Shown here: piece by piece, positions 2,583-43,973 of the stretch
How the letters are laid out: each line of letters starts with the position of its first letter
How positions within the stretch are numbered: position 1 is the stretch's first letter
Virus record (IMG/VR): IMGVR_UViG_3300035099_000181
Coordinates: 1 to 64,000 of that record
Direction: 5' to 3' (one strand)
Length of the DNA: 64,000 nt
Source of the DNA: a virus
Translations under genes and position numbers: made by a program
The notes under the pieces: model-generated
What the model was told of the DNA's origin: nothing
Seen by the model: the letters and a program-made list of their open reading frames with translations, nothing else
Databases searched by the model: none

Positions 2583-3192
2583 GCGCAAGCCGATGTCCTA
2601 TGAGATCCAGGACCAGGTTAAGGACGGCATACGGCGCTATTCGGCACTGGTGTCTTCTGGGGCTGACGGTAGCTGTGTGGCCGAATGCCGCAATGCGATT
2701 TATTCCCTGATGTCGGACTTTATGATGATCTGGGTCACGACGATACTTGCCCGGTGGAAGAGGTTCGAGTCATACCAGGAGCGCCTTTCCGCGAGTTGGG
2801 ATGCATTCTGCTTCTGTCTGGATCGCTATCGGAATTACGACATTCCCGTGCCCAAGCATTTTTACGATTATTCCAGGTATTTTCTGCTTTCGCATTACGC
2901 CAAGAAGGACCATGTGTTCTTACCGATAGAGGACTTGCAGAACACGCTGGCTCTCTCCGAGTTGGCCGAGACCGCGCCTTTCGAGAACCTACTGTCCTTA
3001 TACCAGTTCCGGGAGGCTATGCCAGAACTTTACAAGATAGTCTGGGACGACGCCTTGCTGTCCTTGTGCTCCCGCAATGATAGACAGGTAACGGCTCGGC
3101 CAGGCCTGAACACGAATGCCTATTTTCATGTCAAGAAGGGATTCAAGGCTGTCATTTGCTCCGTCCTGGGCGTGAGTGGTGTCACGCGCTAA
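2575..3192 (+). CDS. Divergent sigma-70/ECF-like transcription factor (putative late sigma)
   Basis: [17 protein letters not shown]...[15 protein letters not shown] resembles sigma region 2; [16 protein letters not shown]...[19 protein letters not shown] resembles region 4; 205 aa. Confidence 0.5.
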
Positions 3193-3228
3193 AAGTTAGC
3201 ATTCCTGGCCCTACCTTTTATATTTTGA
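3189..3228 (+). promoter_or_regulatory. Putative phage late promoter, copy 1 (CTAAAAGTTA-N15-CCTTTTATATTTTGA)
   Basis: Same bipartite motif with the same spacing recurs at 7297-7336; lies upstream of the portal. Confidence 0.7.
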
Positions 3229-3253: not shown

Positions 3254-4783
3254 ATGGACAACAGCAAAATAAGAAAGTCTTCTACTCTGAGGCAGTCTCG
3301 CGAGGCTCTTGAGCTTCGCCGGAATGAGTATGAGACTAAACAGTATGAGGTGGCCACAAGGGAGCTAGGCCTCGTCCTTGAGGCTAGGAATATCGTGGTT
3401 GACGAGGATTTGGAGCGAGGCTGGATGCTCGTAGGTCAGGCAGGGGAGCGGCCAACCGAGACTGAGCACGAGACTGTGCAGGCTTCTGCATACAAACTGT
3501 ACCATGAGAACTTGTTTGCCCGCAGTATTGTACGCAACCTCGCCAAGTTCGTCCTGGGCAAGGGTCCGACTATCATTCCTGATGATGCCAATCCGGAAGT
3601 CAAGAAGACCTGGCAAGAGTTTCGCAAGCTCAACAAGATGAACCAGCGGGAGAAGGAGATAGTATCCCGCACGTTCCGGGATGGCGAGGTGTTCCTGCGC
3701 AAGTTCGTTGACGAAACGGACGGCACGGTCAAGATCCGCTTCATACGGGCCTCCCTCATATCTGATCCCTCCGGAGGGATGGATGACGGGAAGTCTTTTG
3801 GTATAGAGACTGACCCGGATGACATCGAGACGCCTGTCGTGTACTACAAGCAGAAGGTGGACAGGAAAGGACAGTCCCTTGGCAGGGGTGAGTTCGAGGC
3901 CATCCCCGCCGATGAGATCATTCACATAAAAGTGTTCTGCGACGCAGACCAGAAGCGAGGGGTCACGATCTACCGCGTGTGCGCCAAGAGGCTGAAGCAA
4001 TATGAGGAGTGGCTGCTGGACAGGATTGTTCTGAACAAGATCCGCACTGCAATAACCCTCGTCAAGAAGGTTGATGCGCCTGCCGGGACCGTGAAAAGCA
4101 TCCGGGAGGAAGGACTATCCACAAGGATGCCTGAATCTTACAAGAGACAGAAGATGCTGGAGCGAGGGACGGTCATCACGGCGAGTAAGGGGATTAGTTA
4201 TGAGATGCTATCCCCCAACATCAACGCTTCTGACGTGGCCGAGGATGGGCGCTCCATGCTCTTATCAATCGCTACGGGCGTTGGGTTTCCCGAGATGTTA
4301 CTGACTTCCTCCTACGAGAATGCAAACTTTGCATCCACGATGGTTGCGCAGAATCCCTGGGTCCGCGAGGTTGAGGACTGGCAGGACTTCTTTACGTCAT
4401 TCTACCAGGAGCTTTTTGAACTGGTGATCCAGACTAAGATCGATGCCGGGATGCTCCCTAGCGACACGGAAACCACCTGCGCGGTAGAGTTCCCACCAAT
4501 GATAGCAGCGAACCTGAAGGAAATGGCCGAGGCATACGAAATTCAGCAGAAGTACCGTATAATGAGTAAGAGGACATGGCGGGCCAAGATGGGCTTGGAC
4601 AATGATCAGGAGAAACTCTACATCGAGGAGGAGGATGCGGAGGAGGGCAACATTCCAAGCAAACTGGGGGTTCCGCCTGTGCCGGGGCCTGTCCCTGGGC
4701 AGATTCCGCAGCAGGGCGCAGGATTCAACATGCCAAAGGCCCCGGTGAATCAGTACGGGAGTATGCCAGAAGAAGATGAATAG
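3254..4783 (+). CDS. Portal protein (lambda-family-like)
   Basis: RTFRDGEVF, GIETDPDD, EIIHIK, QKRGV and NANFAS motifs; 509 aa; downstream of terL. Confidence 0.9.
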   Translation: MDNSKIRKSSTLRQSREALELRRNEYETKQYEVATRELGLVLEARNIVVDEDLERGWMLVGQAGERPTETEHETVQASAYKLYHENLFARSIVRNLAKFVLGKGPTIIPDDANPEVKKTWQEFRKLNKMNQREKEIVSRTFRDGEVFLRKFVDETDGTVKIRFIRASLISDPSGGMDDGKSFGIETDPDDIETPVVYYKQKVDRKGQSLGRGEFEAIPADEIIHIKVFCDADQKRGVTIYRVCAKRLKQYEEWLLDRIVLNKIRTAITLVKKVDAPAGTVKSIREEGLSTRMPESYKRQKMLERGTVITASKGISYEMLSPNINASDVAEDGRSMLLSIATGVGFPEMLLTSSYENANFASTMVAQNPWVREVEDWQDFFTSFYQELFELVIQTKIDAGMLPSDTETTCAVEFPPMIAANLKEMAEAYEIQQKYRIMSKRTWRAKMGLDNDQEKLYIEEEDAEEGNIPSKLGVPPVPGPVPGQIPQQGAGFNMPKAPVNQYGSMPEEDE

Positions 4784-5690
4784 GAAAGAAGTTTATGAGG
4801 CCGTTGAGGAATTCACGAGCGAATGTTCGCCTTTTTCCGCTTATATTCAGGAGAAAGTCCCCGGTACGGGCTTGAAAGGCGGGCATTGGATAACAACACA
4901 TACCGGTCGCCATGTTTATATTGGAGACAGGGGGGCAAACAAGGGCCGAGTGCTAGCCGGACCTTCTGAACTTATCGGCCAGAGGGTGGGAAAGAAGACA
5001 GTTGGTGCTGCTGATATTCTCAAGGCTGAGGCCGAGCGCACTAAGCTGTCCGCAAAGGTCAAGTTTGACAGGGTTGATGAACTTGAGAAGAAGTTCAATG
5101 CTATCACTGGGGAAAATGCGAGAAACCAGAAGTCAAAGGATATAAAAATAGCTGAACATGCGGACTGTGCCTCTTTGGTGATGCATACGGCAATAAGGCC
5201 AGGCTATGATGTTGACACTCACGCTAAGGTCAAGGCCTATGGTGCTACTACATTAGAGGGAAGGCACGTTAACGTTGATTCCAAGGGCGATGTGTCCCTG
5301 AAATTCGTGGGCAAGAAGGGAGTCAATCAGGACATTCCGATAACAGATTCAAAAGTCGCTTCTATGCTGAAGGCGAAGGCCAAGCAAGCTGGGGAGACAG
5401 GGCGATTGTTCTCCAGAGTATCTGGTGAATCGCTCCTGGCCTATATCAAGAAGTTCGACGGCGGAGGATTCAAGACGAAGGACCTGCGGACTTATGTCGG
5501 GACCAATACGGCAAAGGATACGATAGCGGGAATGGCAATTCCAAAAAACGCTACGCAGTACAAGGCTGCTGTTCGACAAGTGGCTGAAGTTGTATCTAAG
5601 AAGCTAGGCAATACCCCGACGATAGCGTTGCAATCCTACATCAATCCAAAAGTCTTTATAAAATGGAGGAAGAGCGCAAATGTCGAATAA
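4776..5690 (+). CDS. DNA topoisomerase IB catalytic-core protein with an N-terminal WITxxxGRHV motif
   Basis: TopIB motifs in order: IRPG, YGATTLEGRHV, FVGKKGV, FKTKDLRTY, LGNTPTIALQSYINP (catalytic R, K, R, N, Y). Confidence 0.88.
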   Translation: MNRKEVYEAVEEFTSECSPFSAYIQEKVPGTGLKGGHWITTHTGRHVYIGDRGANKGRVLAGPSELIGQRVGKKTVGAADILKAEAERTKLSAKVKFDRVDELEKKFNAITGENARNQKSKDIKIAEHADCASLVMHTAIRPGYDVDTHAKVKAYGATTLEGRHVNVDSKGDVSLKFVGKKGVNQDIPITDSKVASMLKAKAKQAGETGRLFSRVSGESLLAYIKKFDGGGFKTKDLRTYVGTNTAKDTIAGMAIPKNATQYKAAVRQVAEVVSKKLGNTPTIALQSYINPKVFIKWRKSANVE

Positions 5691-37988: not shown

Positions 37989-38123
37989 ATGGACATTTTA
38001 GAGAAAATCAGGGAAGCGGCTGTCCGCGCTATTGCGGCGATGGACGCCACGATAGTGGAGGATGCGGTAGAGAATTGGGAGGTTAACCTCCCAGAGATTG
38101 AATTTTTTCTTGTGACTGACTGA
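37989..38123 (+). CDS. 44-aa acidic helical protein, copy 2
   Basis: MDILEKIREAAVRAIAAMDATIVEDAVENWEVNLPEIEFFLVTD; reading frame conserved relative to copy 1. Confidence 0.7.
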   Translation: MDILEKIREAAVRAIAAMDATIVEDAVENWEVNLPEIEFFLVTD

Positions 38124-38183
38124 CCCGGCGACGGGGCATCGACCTTCTCGCCGATGCCCTGCAACGGGGCCAGTTTCAACCCG
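38118..38183. repeat. Intergenic element A, copy 1 (hairpin GGGCATCG-ACCTTCTCGC-CGATGCCC)
   Basis: Matches 38957-39022. Confidence 0.9.
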
Positions 38184-38278
38184 AGGGAGTATTCCACCGA
38201 GGTGGCCAGGGCGCAACTCCCTGGCGGGCGGCTGGCCAAAGGGACGCTCTTACCCCGAGAGCATGTGAGGAGGGTGCG

Positions 38279-38304
38279 ACTCCCTCCTGGGGGGAGCGTC
38301 CCAA
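38279..38304. repeat. Intergenic element B (ACTCCCTCCTGGGGGGAGCGTCCCAA)
   Basis: Exact copy at 39033-39058; its extension CGTCCCAAAAATTCTAACGCCCCTAC recurs at 40202-40227. Confidence 0.9.
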
Positions 38305-38791: not shown

Positions 38792-38962
38792 ATGAAAATT
38801 TGTCAAAATTCTCAGGGCCAGGCCGAGGGCGGGTGTCGTGCGTTTTGCGACGCCTGCTGCAAGCCAGCAGACGCGGCAGGCTGCGAGGCCTGCGCATGGA
38901 CCGGTATCCAACAATACCGGTGCTCCGAGTGTGAACTCATTAGAGTTCAGCTCGGAGACTGA
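38792..38962 (+). CDS. 56-aa Cys-rich putative zinc-binding protein (absent from the ORF track)
   Basis: MKICQNSQGQAEGGCRAFCDACCKPADAAGCEACAWTGIQQYRCSECELIRVQLGD, three CxxC pairs; stop codon lies inside element A. Confidence 0.6.
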   Translation: MKICQNSQGQAEGGCRAFCDACCKPADAAGCEACAWTGIQQYRCSECELIRVQLGD

Positions 38963-39022
38963 CCCAGCGACGGGGCATCGGCGAGAAGGTCGATGCCCTG
39001 CAACGGGGCCAGTTTCAACCCG
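38957..39022. repeat. Intergenic element A, copy 2 with inverted loop (GGGCATCG-GCGAGAAGGT-CGATGCCC)
   Basis: The loop is the reverse complement of the copy 1 loop. Confidence 0.9.
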
Positions 39023-39094
39023 GAAGAGTGTCACTCCCTCCTGGGGGGAGCGTCCCAAAAATTCTAACGCCCCTACGGGGACAAGGAGGAAAGA

Positions 39095-39510: not shown

Positions 39511-40218
39511 ATGGATCGGGAAGAACTTGAGAGAATAGTAAGAGAGGCGCGACAAATCGGGCATACGCCCGATCTAAATGGCGCCGACCTGTGCGGCATC
39601 AACCTGCGCGGCATCGACTTGAGCGATGCTAACTTAAACGGCGCCGATTTCTACGGCGCCAATTTAAATGGCACTGATTTAACCAACGCCGACCTGTGCG
39701 GCGCCGACCTCAATGGAGTCGATTTGCGGGAAGCCGACCTGGTAGGTGCCAGGTTGGTCGATGCCGATTTGCGGGAGGCCAATTTGATAGGCGCCGACTT
39801 AAGCGCCGCTGATTTGCACTGGGGCAAATTAAGCGGCAGCTGTCTGCGCGAGGCCGATTTCCACGGCGCCTGTTTAAATGGCGCCGATTTGAGCGGCGCT
39901 AACTTGATGGGCGCCAATTTAACAGATGCCAATTTAACAGATGCCAATTTAACAGGCGCCGACTTGAGCGGCGCCATAACGGATCAGCATATCTGGTCCG
40001 TAGACGGGATTGGCTCCGCCAGGCGGCGGACAACGTATTGGCTTGAGGCAGACCGTATATACTGCGGCTGCCAAACTTATACTCTGGCCGAATTCAGGGC
40101 CAGAGTTGGTCAGGAATACCCTGACCTATCAAGTATTTATCGTCGTCAGTACGAGGCGGCCGTGGCGTATTTCGAGACGCTGGCCACAATCGCGAGGGGA
40201 ACGTCCCAAAAATTCTAA
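39511..40218 (+). CDS. Pentapeptide repeat protein
   Basis: Many A(D/N)Lxx repeats; C-terminal GIGSARR..CGC domain. Confidence 0.92.
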   Translation: MDREELERIVREARQIGHTPDLNGADLCGINLRGIDLSDANLNGADFYGANLNGTDLTNADLCGADLNGVDLREADLVGARLVDADLREANLIGADLSAADLHWGKLSGSCLREADFHGACLNGADLSGANLMGANLTDANLTDANLTGADLSGAITDQHIWSVDGIGSARRRTTYWLEADRIYCGCQTYTLAEFRARVGQEYPDLSSIYRRQYEAAVAYFETLATIARGTSQKF

Positions 40219-40249
40219 CGCCCCTACTGGGGCAGGGGAGGAGCAGAAA

Positions 40250-40570: not shown

Positions 40571-40705
40571 TGCCCGATGGGCAGAAGGAAAGGAGGTGAG
40601 ACAATGAGCAAAAAGCCCGCGAAGGGCAATTCTTGAATTCACCGTAGGGCAGGACCGAGAATCCTGCCACTCGGCGAACCCAAGAAAAAAGGAAGATCAA
40701 TCGTT

Positions 40706-43288
40706 ATGAAGCTAATAAAGAAGGGGGACAAGTTTGTTGCCGTGTCCACCTACGCTGAAAAAGACATCCCAAAAGGGGCGGGGTTCCGCTGGGATCCCGC
40801 TAATAGATTTTGGTGGACGAGCGACCTGGCCAAGGCTAACAGCCTAGCCCAGTTCGCCGACGACAATGTGAGAGCCGAGCTGGAGGCTGCCAAGCGGGAG
40901 CGCAAGGCTTCCATTGAAGCATCCAGAGCGAAGGATGCTGGCATCCAAATTCCCGCACCAGATGGTCTCGCGTATTTACCATTCCAGAAGGCCGGAGTCG
41001 CGTATGCTATCGAACACCAAACGACTCTCATGGCCGACGAGATGGGGCTTGGAAAGACCATCCAGGCTATCGGAGTCATAAATTCCCTGCCTGAGATCAG
41101 ATCCGTCCTGGTCATCTGCCCTGCCTCCCTAAAAATCAATTGGAAAAGGGAGTTGGACAAATGGCTCATTAGACAGCTTTGCGTCGAGATCGCCAACATC
41201 GGGAGCTTCCCGTCTTCAGATATCGTGGTGATTAACTACGATATTTTGGCCAAGCACGCCTCAGCAATTCACGCCCGGAAGTGGGATCTTCTTGTAATAG
41301 ATGAGGCTCATTATTGTTTTCCGGAAAATACAAAAGTTAGTACGTCAGAAGGCGAGATTTCTATATCTCAAATAGTCAACAATAGGATAGACGTGTTAGT
41401 TAAGTCTTATAATTTATCTAATAGTGCAATAGAATGGAAACGAATAACGCACTTTCACAAGCACCCTCAATATGGGGAACTTGTGAAAATTGTTCACGAG
41501 AAAGGAGAATTGATTTGCACAAAAGATCATCAGCTTTGGACTGGGGCTCAATATGAGGAAGCCTCGAAGAGTTGTGGAAAGAATTTGCAAATATTGCAAG
41601 AAACCTTTTCTCCAAATACCTACAGAGTATTCAATACGGACTGCTCCCATAAAATCACTGATCCCAAATCTTCCGTCATGCCACAAGATAGATCTTGCAA
41701 TCCCAGAACGAAAGTTAGCAATAGAAATAGACGGGCGATTGCATTCAGTTGCCCGAATGGAGAAATTGGATCAAAAGAAGACGGAAGTCTTAAAAGTTCT
41801 CGGGTGGTCCGTGTTGAGGTTCTCAAACGAGGAGGTTCTGAACAATCTGAAATTAGTGGTGGAGAAAATTATGTTTACTGCTTAAGCATCCAAGATAACG
41901 AAAACTTTTTTGCGGATGGGGTATTAGTATCCAACTGCAAAAATCCCAAGGCCCAAAGAACGCAAAATATCTTGGGCAAGTGGGATCGGGACCCAGCCAA
42001 GGCCATTCCAGCTATCCAAGCCAAACGGAAGCTGTTCCTGTCCGGGACATTCATCACAAATGGCCGTCCTATCGAGCTTTGGCCCGTCATCCGCTCGATC
42101 CAGGCAGACGGGCTGAAGATGTCATGGGAGCAATACGTTACACGGTATTGCAATGCCCGCCGGAATCGCTACGGATGGGATGTAAGCGGAGCGAGCAATC
42201 TAGAGGAATTGCAGGAGAAGCTCCGAGCCTCCGTAATGGTCAGACGCTTGAAAAAAGATGTCCTGACTGAACTTCCACCCAAGCGGCGGCAAGTGATAGA
42301 GCTGCCAGTTAACGGCGTGACTTCAGTTATTCTGGAGCAAAAGGCTTGGGCCGCGCAGGAGGGCAACCTTCTGAGACTCAAAGCCGCTGTCGAGCTGGCG
42401 AAGGCGTCAGAAGACGAGGGCGAGTATGAAGCGGCCGTCAAAGCACTCCGGGGAGGCACAGGAGCTGCGTTTACGGAGATGTCCGTCCTGCGTCACAAGA
42501 CGGCACTCGCGAAAGTTCCCATGGTCATCGAGCACATCCAGGAAGCCCTTGAGGCATCCGGCAAAGTGGTCCTGTTTTGCCATCACAAAGATGTCGCGGC
42601 CAAGGTCGCGGCGGAGTTCGACGGGACTTGCGTGACAGTGACCGGTGACGACAAGATCGCCGAGCGGCAGGCCTGCGTCGACAAGTTCCAAGCGGACCCC
42701 AAGGTCCAGCTATTTGTTGGGACGATAGGCGCGGCTGGCCTAGGCATAACTCTGACGGCCTCTGCCCATGTTGTATTTGCAGAATTGGACTGGGTGCCCG
42801 GCAACGTGACCCAGGCCGAGGACAGGCTTCACAGGATCGGGCAAGCAGGGAGCATCTTGGTACAGCACCTAGTTCTGGAGGGCAGTCTTGACGCGACAAT
42901 GGCCAAGACCCTGATTGCTAAGCAAGACAATATCGACCGGGCATTGGACAGAGAGTTTGCGGAGCAAGAGAAGTCCGAGCCTGTGCTGCCTATCGCCACC
43001 TCCGATCTTCCCTCGCGCAAGACCGTGGAGCGGGAGGCGAAGGACATGTCCGAGAAGCAGATCAGCGCTATTCACAAAGCACTCGGTTTGCTGGCTGGGC
43101 GGTGCGACGGGGCGAGGAAGAAGGACGAGATGGGATTTGACCGGCTTGACACACTGATAGGGCGCAATCTGGCCTACGCCGACAAGTTGACAGCGAAGCA
43201 GGCCGCGCTCGGGAGGCGAATCCTACTCAAGTATCACAAACAGCTTCCTGAGGAGGTAGCAACTGCTTGCAAAAATCCAACAATATGA
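40706..43288 (+). CDS. SNF2/SMARCAL1-like helicase containing an intein
   Basis: ADEMGLGKT, VICPASLK, DEAH, LSGT, MVRRLKKDVL and QAEDRLHRIGQ motifs. Confidence 0.93.
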   Translation: MKLIKKGDKFVAVSTYAEKDIPKGAGFRWDPANRFWWTSDLAKANSLAQFADDNVRAELEAAKRERKASIEASRAKDAGIQIPAPDGLAYLPFQKAGVAYAIEHQTTLMADEMGLGKTIQAIGVINSLPEIRSVLVICPASLKINWKRELDKWLIRQLCVEIANIGSFPSSDIVVINYDILAKHASAIHARKWDLLVIDEAHYCFPENTKVSTSEGEISISQIVNNRIDVLVKSYNLSNSAIEWKRITHFHKHPQYGELVKIVHEKGELICTKDHQLWTGAQYEEASKSCGKNLQILQETFSPNTYRVFNTDCSHKITDPKSSVMPQDRSCNPRTKVSNRNRRAIAFSCPNGEIGSKEDGSLKSSRVVRVEVLKRGGSEQSEISGGENYVYCLSIQDNENFFADGVLVSNCKNPKAQRTQNILGKWDRDPAKAIPAIQAKRKLFLSGTFITNGRPIELWPVIRSIQADGLKMSWEQYVTRYCNARRNRYGWDVSGASNLEELQEKLRASVMVRRLKKDVLTELPPKRRQVIELPVNGVTSVILEQKAWAAQEGNLLRLKAAVELAKASEDEGEYEAAVKALRGGTGAAFTEMSVLRHKTALAKVPMVIEHIQEALEASGKVVLFCHHKDVAAKVAAEFDGTCVTVTGDDKIAERQACVDKFQADPKVQLFVGTIGAAGLGITLTASAHVVFAELDWVPGNVTQAEDRLHRIGQAGSILVQHLVLEGSLDATMAKTLIAKQDNIDRALDREFAEQEKSEPVLPIATSDLPSRKTVEREAKDMSEKQISAIHKALGLLAGRCDGARKKDEMGFDRLDTLIGRNLAYADKLTAKQAALGRRILLKYHKQLPEEVATACKNPTI
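41315..41935 (+). mobile_element. Intein (207 aa) inserted directly after DEAHY
   Basis: Starts CFPENTKV, block B CTKDHQL, ends VYCLSIQDNENFFADGVLVSN with +1 Cys. Confidence 0.9.
41553..41885 (+). CDS. DUF559/Vsr-like endonuclease in the +1 frame, nested in the intein
   Basis: CKYCKK; KIDLAIPERKLAIEIDGRLH...DQKKTEVLKVLGWSVLRFSNEEV. Confidence 0.75.
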   Translation: MRKPRRVVERICKYCKKPFLQIPTEYSIRTAPIKSLIPNLPSCHKIDLAIPERKLAIEIDGRLHSVARMEKLDQKKTEVLKVLGWSVLRFSNEEVLNNLKLVVEKIMFTA

Positions 43289-43358
43289 ATGTTGGGCAAG
43301 GAGTTTATATCGTTCATCTGACCCTCACGAATGTATAAAAGTATGGGGAAAATTAACT

Positions 43359-43973
43359 ATGAATACTTTGTTTCAAGAAAAACCGCAAGTAGTAAAATCT
43401 ATACAAAATAGTGATAGAGATGTTTTGGCAGCAATAAGACAATTATATCTAAACAACAAAAACTTTGATTTAGACCCTTGTTATTCTGTTGGCAAGTTTT
43501 ATGAGGATTTAGAAAGACCATTCCATAAATTAGATAAAATCCCGCAAGATGATGAAGTTATTCAAAATGATATTATGAATGGGCTACCATATTCGGCAAA
43601 TACAATGGAAAGTATTGTATTTGACCCACCTTTTATGTTTAGACCACACGGGCAAGCAAAAAATAACATAATGGCCAAGAGATTTATGATGTTTGATAGT
43701 TGGGCGGAACTTGAAAGTATGTACAAAAAATCTCTTGAGCAATTTTATATTGTTCTAAAAAAGGGTGGAATAGTTGCATTCAAATGCCAAGATTATACTG
43801 ATAGCAGGACTACGCTTACTCATTGTTTTGTTCATAATTGGGCATTAGAACGGGGATTTAGAGTAGAGGATTTGTTTATTGTGGCTTTTAAGGGTGGCAG
43901 AATTTGGAATAGCAAGCTCACACAAAAACACGCAAGAAAATACCATTCTTACTGGTTAGTGTTGAAAAAATAA
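43359..43973 (+). CDS. DNA amino-methyltransferase-like protein
   Basis: DLDPCYSVGKFY and catalytic VFDPPF; VLKKGG; AT-rich relative to neighbours. Confidence 0.75.
   Translation: MNTLFQEKPQVVKSIQNSDRDVLAAIRQLYLNNKNFDLDPCYSVGKFYEDLERPFHKLDKIPQDDEVIQNDIMNGLPYSANTMESIVFDPPFMFRPHGQAKNNIMAKRFMMFDSWAELESMYKKSLEQFYIVLKKGGIVAFKCQDYTDSRTTLTHCFVHNWALERGFRVEDLFIVAFKGGRIWNSKLTQKHARKYHSYWLVLKK

Follow-up and report, generated by a model that had tools for sequence, protein, structure and literature searches.

The 64,000-nucleotide (nt) window analysed here (positions 1 to 64,000 of IMG/VR virus record IMGVR_UViG_3300035099_000181, which has 101,070 bases (101 kb) and direct terminal repeats) carries a gene for a SNF2-family helicase that is interrupted by an intein, and the DNA of this intein encodes a second protein, a Vsr-like nuclease, in the +1 frame of the same strand. 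We read the whole as a two-frame mobile element of a phage genome, i.e., an intein with a nested nuclease gene, whose copy in the window was shortened by a deletion, and we put the probability of this reading at about 0.85. Two of its parts, the dual coding and the membership in a family of such elements, are nearly certain. A preliminary description, made from the sequence alone, had proposed a dual-coding mobile element with a separate homing nuclease: one stretch does specify two products, and what has to be revised is the nuclease, which is shortened and has lost its DNA-binding modules. The coordinates of all features are collected in Table 1.

The intein of 207 amino acids (aa) at 41315-41935, with its splicing blocks, is as initially described. 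Its Cys1 (41315-41317) stands immediately 3' of the codons for the helicase motif DEAHY, block B (T69-K-D-H72) lies at 41519-41530, and the C-terminus is formed by Ser206 and Asn207 (41933-41935), followed by Cys+1 (41936-41938). In the alignment of intein-frame sequences (A3), H72 is invariant and T69 nearly so. The insert matches the Pfam family Intein_splicing (PF14890, 8.6e-11), and SNF2 homology resumes on both of its flanks; an intein-free allele (locus L083) reads D-E-S-Q-A-C-K-N-P-K-A across the same point. In an AlphaFold model, for which 36 intein-frame sequences were aligned, residues 1-95 and 159-207 have a predicted local distance difference test score (pLDDT) of ~97 and residues ~96-155 one of ~50; the model matches mini-intein structures with probability 1.0 and a template modelling (TM) score of up to 0.85 relative to the target. 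The folded parts of the Hint domain (residues 1-95 and 159-207) thus overlap both ends of the nuclease open reading frame (ORF). The G+C content (GC) of the insert is 35-41%, against 50-60% in the flanking helicase gene, a difference that suggests a foreign origin of the intein.

The nested ORF runs from an ATG at 41553 to a TAA at 41883-41885 and encodes 110 aa that match DUF559 (Pfam, 3.9e-13), which bears out the initial assignment of the +1 frame at 41553-41885 to a DUF559/Vsr-like nuclease. A profile of the nuclease and its relatives matches PDB entries 3hrl (7e-9) and 3r3p (5.7e-3). The AlphaFold model of the protein is confident (pLDDT 89.3, predicted TM score 0.80), and its top Foldseek match, with probability 1.0, is 3r3p, the catalytic domain of I-Bth0305I, the prototypical EDxHD homing endonuclease (Taylor et al. 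2011, PMC3239194; PDB 3R3P). The alignment of nuclease sequences (A2) shows D47, E58, D60, H64 and D73 without exception and E25 in at least 90% of the sequences; the spacing of D47, H64 and D73 (17 and 9 residues) equals that of D196, H213 and D222 in I-Bth0305I (PMC3239194). The N-terminal DNA-binding region is not retained, and only a C-x-x-C half motif is left of it. The nuclease gene sits within an intein in helicase motif II, i.e., within a putatively self-splicing element whose insertion site is conserved and belongs to a gene of DNA metabolism.

This arrangement recurs widely. Viral contigs were scanned with an alignment of the window nuclease and its protein matches, which gave 80 loci (37-57% identity, GC of 25-66%), and a scan in which each prokaryotic species was represented by one genome yielded 80 further loci; the tallies of viral loci below rest on those 80, the DNA scans having found 121 viral loci overall. 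At 79 of the 80 viral loci, one long host ORF (400-3400 aa) passes through the whole nuclease ORF, which is always in the +1 frame, and closes the insert with the usual intein C-terminal motif. The host genes among these viral relatives encode SNF2 helicases, ResIII/DEAD helicases and a clamp-loader ATPase, and most junctions lie in or beside helicase motif II. The sole exception (L066) is a split form with a free-standing nuclease gene: on a contig of 38% GC (L066:4277-5263), the N-terminal intein half stops at 4544, a 229-aa Vsr-like gene occupies 4524-5210, and the C-terminal half starts with an ATG at 5093. About 25 of the 80 genome loci are nested in inteins in the same way (in Anaerolineae, Longilinea arvoryzae, Roseicella, Planctomycetes, bacteria of the candidate phyla radiation (CPR) and a Thermococci metagenome-assembled genome (MAG)). 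The +1 ORF is thus intact in its relatives and not peculiar to the window. Protein databases hold few of these genes: the nested nuclease had only 20 matches among 5.8 billion clusters, all on contigs <4 kb, against more than 120 loci at the DNA level, evidently because gene callers skip ORFs nested within a longer gene. The ending in Ser-Asn instead of His-Asn, to which the preliminary description had drawn attention, is real and is a common variant of the clade: many relatives have Ser in place of the penultimate His of block G (e.g., L001-L004, L009-L012, L016), and some have Gly or Ala. Some active inteins have no penultimate His, so Ser206 is not disqualifying.

Several of these loci deserve a remark of their own. 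A contig of a Thermococci archaeon MAG (L160, match at 3001-3204) carries a nested copy within an 835-aa ORF and is binned as archaeal; it may come from a virus or provirus of an archaeon or be a binning error. One phage helicase (L014:3107-6094) contains two inteins: that further upstream has a LAGLIDADG endonuclease in frame, and the other is Vsr-overprinted. At L084:1055-2296, an intein in motif II follows D-E, 2-3 residues upstream of the window site; its insert of 414 aa is wholly in frame, with both other frames closed. By eye this insert looked like a nuclease, an assignment that we dropped, as Pfam shows only C2H2 zinc fingers.

The openness of both frames over the nuclease ORF, already reported in the preliminary description, is not expected by chance. 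In the window, the +1 frame is free of stops from 41514 to 41885, the intein frame is continuous, and the third frame has many stops. In 5000 synonymous-codon shuffles of the 110-codon nuclease ORF, the intein frame contained on average 6.19 stops, against 0 observed (probability of an open frame, 0.0002), and for 67 distinct relatives 11.1 stops were expected by shuffling, against an observed mean of 0.40, all from one locus. We therefore reject a chance ORF. An intrinsic property of DUF559 coding is rejected as well, since the remaining 55 genome loci are ordinary free DUF559 genes and average 6.0 stops in that frame over ~60 codons: the openness of the second frame goes with nesting.

The two frames differ in how they are conserved. 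In 66 distinct sequences, aligned over 93 codons of the nuclease, base entropy at positions 1, 2 and 3 of the nuclease codons was 1.23, 1.00 and 1.55, with the same ranking in every divergence class. Mean pairwise amino-acid identity was 0.44 for the nuclease frame, whereas the intein frame and the unused frame each gave 0.25. Both measures indicate that the nuclease is the conserved reading and that the intein linker is merely kept open. At the level of the family, the nuclease frame is, on this comparison of aligned codons, under purifying selection. Of the two outcomes that the preliminary description had named as refuting it, a +1 ORF broken in relatives and a lack of purifying selection, neither was observed. 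A patch of ~13 codons departs from this pattern, with the intein-frame motif R-V-x-S-[V/I]-E-[I/V] conserved over the L-G-W-S-V-L-R-F region of the nuclease. In nuclease codons 79-91, the entropy of the third position is 1.31 for nested genes vs 1.82 for free DUF559 genes; for the linker codons, the values are 1.55 vs 1.61. The alignments thus indicate constraint in both frames for this patch, which overlaps a folded strand of the intein (residues 159-170). The middle of the intein, which had been taken for filler, deserves that name for residues ~96-155, and does not for the folded flanks and the two-frame patch.

The copy in the window is short. Inteins at the same site, for which the preliminary description had suggested looking, occur in L001, L009 and L087, and L083 provides the intein-free allele. 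The helicase of L001 is of the same kind and has the same site (D-E-S-H-Y, then C-K-N-Y-K-A), with an intein of 362 aa and a nuclease of 286 aa. Full-length relatives have 1-2 zinc ribbons (weak matches to zf-FCS, TRASH or treble-clef domains) and a NUMOD-like segment before the nuclease domain. The window nuclease starts as they do, with basic residues and C-x-x-C...F, and then passes straight into the nuclease domain; zinc-ribbon matches are found in the relatives only, and the window keeps half of one ribbon. With 110 aa it is the shortest nested copy with a core that we saw, the others in the viral set having 171-354 aa. Of 22 positions that at least 80% of relatives have in common, its core retains 21, and the median relative likewise deviates at 1. 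From these comparisons, the window copy appears to be an internal in-frame deletion derivative that lost its DNA-binding modules and kept an undecayed catalytic core.

The site also offers what reads as a decay series. Intein sizes at this SNF2 site are 362-377 aa, 207 aa (window), 181 aa (L087) and ~178 aa (protein P0025), and other SNF2 proteins have same-site inteins of 310-366 aa or ~178 aa. In L087 (protein P0027), the 181-aa intein contains a 71-aa +1 remnant with the same N-terminal half-ribbon and without the region of the catalytic Asp/Glu-x-Asp/His residues. As compared here, the same-site inteins would be linked by in-frame deletions, with the window between the full element of L001 and the dead remnant of L087. 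The exteins of L087 and of its matching intein-free allele L083 differ by 1 nt in 1950 (intein at L087:1673-2215, uninterrupted junction at L083:1672-1673), a pair that can be explained by recent gain, precise loss or mobilisation in trans.

These observations lead us to the following scheme. The helicase gene would be translated straight through the 207-aa intein after DEAHY, and the intein would excise itself by means of Cys1, T69..H72, Asn207 and Cys+1. The nuclease would be translated separately, presumably by internal initiation at the ATG at 41553. A full-length enzyme would cut an intein-less helicase allele at motif II, whose recombinational repair would copy the intein in. Across the family, selection would conserve the nuclease frame and merely keep the linker of the intein frame free of stops, and both frames would be constrained where the ends of the nuclease overlap folded intein strands. 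In the lineage of the window, an in-frame deletion of ~470 nt would have stripped off the DNA-binding modules, leaving 19 N-terminal residues and the complete catalytic domain; as it kept the reading frame of the host gene, it would automatically have preserved the +1 frame too. If homing has been lost, the element would be on its way to a mini-intein, a path along which L087 is further advanced at the same site.

A displaced frame could in principle result from an error of assembly or sequencing, in which two compensating indels moved an in-frame nuclease domain out of frame. The sequence is indeed known from a single metagenomic assembly, but the same +1 nesting occurs at >100 independent loci from other samples, and the nuclease frame has a start and a stop of its own, with stop codons just upstream. 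Moreover, a second assembly (a Logan contig) of the probable source run shows 0 differences over 40700-43300 at a depth of ~31, so that a double frameshift error is not the cause; we regard the probability of such an artefact as negligible. Among the Logan contigs of one DNA run (contigs only), none joins the exteins across the intein, a result without bearing on a coexisting intein-free allele. Programmed +1 ribosomal frameshifting, which would produce the nuclease as a fusion to the N-extein and the intein's N-terminal part, would fit the position of both genes on the same strand and in one transcript, and the weak Shine-Dalgarno (SD)-like motif of the window (GGGG only). However, a stop in the nuclease frame lies 13 codons 5' of the ATG in the window and 0-5 codons 5' of it in about half of the loci, which leaves scant room for a shift site. 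The ATG itself is conserved at homologous positions: in the window it is formed by the codon of intein Tyr80 (TAT) and the next G, 11 residues past the Thr of block B, and the distance is 11-12 residues in the window and in L002, L006, L021, L022, L031, L056, L057, L071 and L080. Strict SD cores precede the first ATG in 25 of 66 relatives (38%), against 10% at control positions, and the split form of L066 carries the same gene as a free-standing ORF. The upstream stops, the position of the ATG and the enrichment of SD cores favour internal initiation, and we consider frameshifting very improbable.

What the shortened nuclease still does is less clear-cut. We predict, with odds slightly better than even, that it is unable to home on its own, and the term "separately translated homing nuclease" may then describe its ancestry better than its present activity. 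This would agree with the presence of at least one zinc ribbon and a NUMOD-like segment in all ~90 distinct nested relatives, with the ~60-bp footprint that I-Bth0305I makes through its N-terminal region (PMC3239194), and with the fact that searches at the protein and DNA levels found no second example of the short 110-aa architecture. That the 110-aa protein is instead a working homing endonuclease, a minimal EDxHD enzyme whose dimeric catalytic core gives enough site recognition, is a serious contender, though we place it somewhat below even odds. It retains all catalytic residues together with the ancestral start codon and N-terminus, its fold is confident and complete and matches the whole catalytic domain of I-Bth0305I, and the low GC of the intein suggests a recent arrival. 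As a third option, the shortened protein could have been kept for another job, e.g., as a non-homing nuclease in competition between phages, given a core that is undecayed despite the lost targeting modules and the frequency of single-domain DUF559 proteins in genomes; but we found no conserved clade of short nested forms, the neighbourhood gives no pointer to such a role, and we consider it improbable.

Several points weigh against our reading of the window copy as a two-frame mobile element impaired by deletion. Splicing, internal initiation and cleavage are all three activities that we infer, the SD-like motif is weak, and a consensus scan of the intein found no sigma-70-like promoter and no excess over shuffles. 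The window copy has no close relative: its intein protein had 0 matches among viral contigs, P0025 as a query gave nothing there, and a protein search around the intein gave none above 47% identity. For this reason, selection on the window's own lineage since the deletion is not measurable from sequence comparison. An open +1 ORF is weak evidence either way, since any deletion that the host frame tolerates keeps the frame of the nested gene as well and leaves its ORF open without selection. As to the impairment, a complete catalytic domain without excess divergence is retained, there are free DUF559 proteins with 120-160 aa, the isolated catalytic domain of I-Bth0305I still dimerises, and the strongest sequence specificity of that enzyme lies in the central 14 bp at the cut site (PMC3239194). 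More tentative still is the joint proposition that this near-bare EDxHD catalytic domain of 110 aa remains a site-specific homing endonuclease and that the sense-strand +1 overprinting of Vsr and intein is an old gene pair of single origin, kept across many phyla and several host genes.

Table 1. Features of the interrupted helicase gene and its nested nuclease, in window coordinates.
Feature	Position	Strand	Evidence
SNF2-family helicase gene, 860-aa precursor including intein	40706..43288	+	Pfam SNF2-rel_dom 6.1e-30, Helicase_C 1.1e-11; PHROG DNA helicase 3.3e-33
Helicase motif II D-E-A-H-Y, final N-extein codons, left half of putative homing site	41300..41314	+	Sequence; junction common to L001, L009, L087; uninterrupted in L083
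Class-1 intein, 207 aa (Cys1, block B T69..H72, Ser206-Asn207)	41315..41935	+	Pfam Intein_splicing; AlphaFold pLDDT 81; Hint-fold matches
N-terminal splicing lobe, intein residues 1-95; final 16 codons overlap start of nuclease ORF	41315..41599	+	pLDDT ~97 (residues 1-90); G-Y-x-x-A..L motif conserved in intein-frame alignment A3
Weak Shine-Dalgarno-like GGGG, 6 nt 5' of nuclease ATG (putative function)	41543..41546	+	Sequence
Nested +1-frame ORF, 110-aa Vsr-like/EDxHD-type nuclease (shortened homing endonuclease)	41553..41885	+	Pfam DUF559; PDB profile matches; AlphaFold; fold match
Intein linker, residues ~96-155; open low-confidence spacer in intein frame, nuclease core in +1 frame	41600..41779	+	pLDDT ~50; identity
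Approximate junction of putative in-frame deletion (~470 nt), after first CxxC...F motif of nuclease	41609..41610	+	Alignment with L001; exact breakpoint inferred
Catalytic residues E25, D47, E58, D60, H64, D73 of nuclease	41625..41771	+	Alignment A2; spacing as in I-Bth0305I
Two-frame patch: intein strands (residues 156-190, including S-R-V-V-R-V-E-V-L) over nuclease C-terminus (L-G-W-S-V-L-R-F onward)	41780..41885	+	pLDDT 97 for intein residues 159-170; third-position entropy
Intein blocks F/G tail ending Ser-Asn	41886..41935	+	Sequence; C-terminal motif conserved in relatives
First C-extein codons C-K-N-P-K-A-Q-R-T, right half of putative homing site	41936..41965	+	19 of first 20 nt as in L083 empty site and L087 occupied site

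The surroundings of the helicase gene have features of their own. Directly downstream, on the same strand, a 204-aa DNA methyltransferase (43359-43973; phrog_24333, 3.3e-44; no Pfam match) lies in a second island of low GC (31-36%, against 55-60% around it) and has the look of a further insert acquired recently. A pentapeptide-repeat protein (Pfam, 1.9e-41) is encoded at 39511-40218 (also + strand), just upstream of the helicase region. Intergenic direct repeats, 84-91% identical, precede several small genes and may be repeated regulatory elements (42 nt at 39045-39086 and 40196-40237; 73 nt at 38118-38190 and 38957-39029; 34 nt at 38271-38304 and 39025-39058).

Four known kinds of system resemble the element of the window in part. 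I-Bth0305I shares with it the Vsr-like catalytic domain, the spacing of the Asp-His-Asp residues and the best fold match, at ~20% sequence identity. It differs in residing in a group I intron of recA and in having two NUMOD2/helix-turn-helix (HTH) motifs N-terminal to the nuclease, where the relatives of the window nuclease have zinc ribbons and a NUMOD-like segment and the window copy has neither. Vsr-like endonucleases are also known as free-standing genes between the halves of split inteins, in "fractured genes" (Dassa et al. 2009, PMC2677866). The family of the endonuclease, its place between the intein lobes, its strand, its 3' overlap with the intein's C-terminal part and the hosts, which are phage DNA-metabolism genes, are as in the window, and L066 has exactly the fractured form. 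By contrast, the intein frame of the window, like that of 79 of the 80 viral relatives, has neither stop nor restart and would yield one host chain that splices in cis, and the endonuclease gene is not intergenic but overprinted over its full length.

Endonucleases encoded in other frames of contiguous inteins or antisense to them, including antisense VSR-like and frame-3 EndoVII-like genes, have been described (Gosselin, Arsenault and Gogarten, bioRxiv 10.1101/2025.01.02.630785); the antisense LAGLIDADG or VSR-like genes in actinophage inteins are published cases of such non-canonical inteins, and sense-strand VSR-like enzymes are otherwise known only with split inteins (same source). A +2-frame LAGLIDADG gene in a cyanobacterial dnaX intein shows frame-specific selection (Phillips, DeSimone and Gogarten, bioRxiv 10.64898/2026.09.14.751524), and that preprint credits Gorbalenya 1998 for inteins with out-of-frame endonucleases. 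The likeness to the window is close: a contiguous intein, an endonuclease between the splicing blocks in another frame, an open intein frame and, as in the family of the window, purifying selection on the endonuclease frame with relaxed selection on the intein frame. Their proposed origin is the invasion of a mini-intein by a free-standing endonuclease gene. Unlike the published cases, the present family is VSR-like, on the sense strand and always in the +1 frame, it occupies helicase motif II and other sites in many phyla, and the window copy is internally deleted. Mini-inteins that arose by loss of the endonuclease offer a further parallel, as the same-site intein sizes are consistent with stepwise loss; here, however, in-frame deletions leave an open remnant in the second frame, and the window still has the entire catalytic domain. 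In the literature searched, we came upon no account of the Vsr-like form in the +1 frame of the sense strand. The general principle of an out-of-frame endonuclease in an intein is already published, and the window copy is not a one-off but a member of a large family; what it adds is an apparent internal deletion derivative with an undecayed catalytic core.

The usual picture of an intein is that of an element with one reading frame, which includes the endonuclease domain. The family described here is an argument for the view that endonucleases enter mini-inteins as genes of their own, and it links the split fractured genes with contiguous inteins, as the two differ only by the open host frame and both are found in one family. 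It also provides a natural case in which two coding sequences have overlapped for a long time and selection can be measured in either frame. Its decay holds a lesson, because only deletions that are in frame for the host are tolerated, so that what is left over is open in both frames and may pass for a working gene. If the 110-aa product does home, it would be among the smallest homing endonucleases known, and target recognition in the family would lie largely in the dimeric nuclease core. Compact EDxHD nucleases and the helicase inteins described here might serve as tools in genome and protein engineering.

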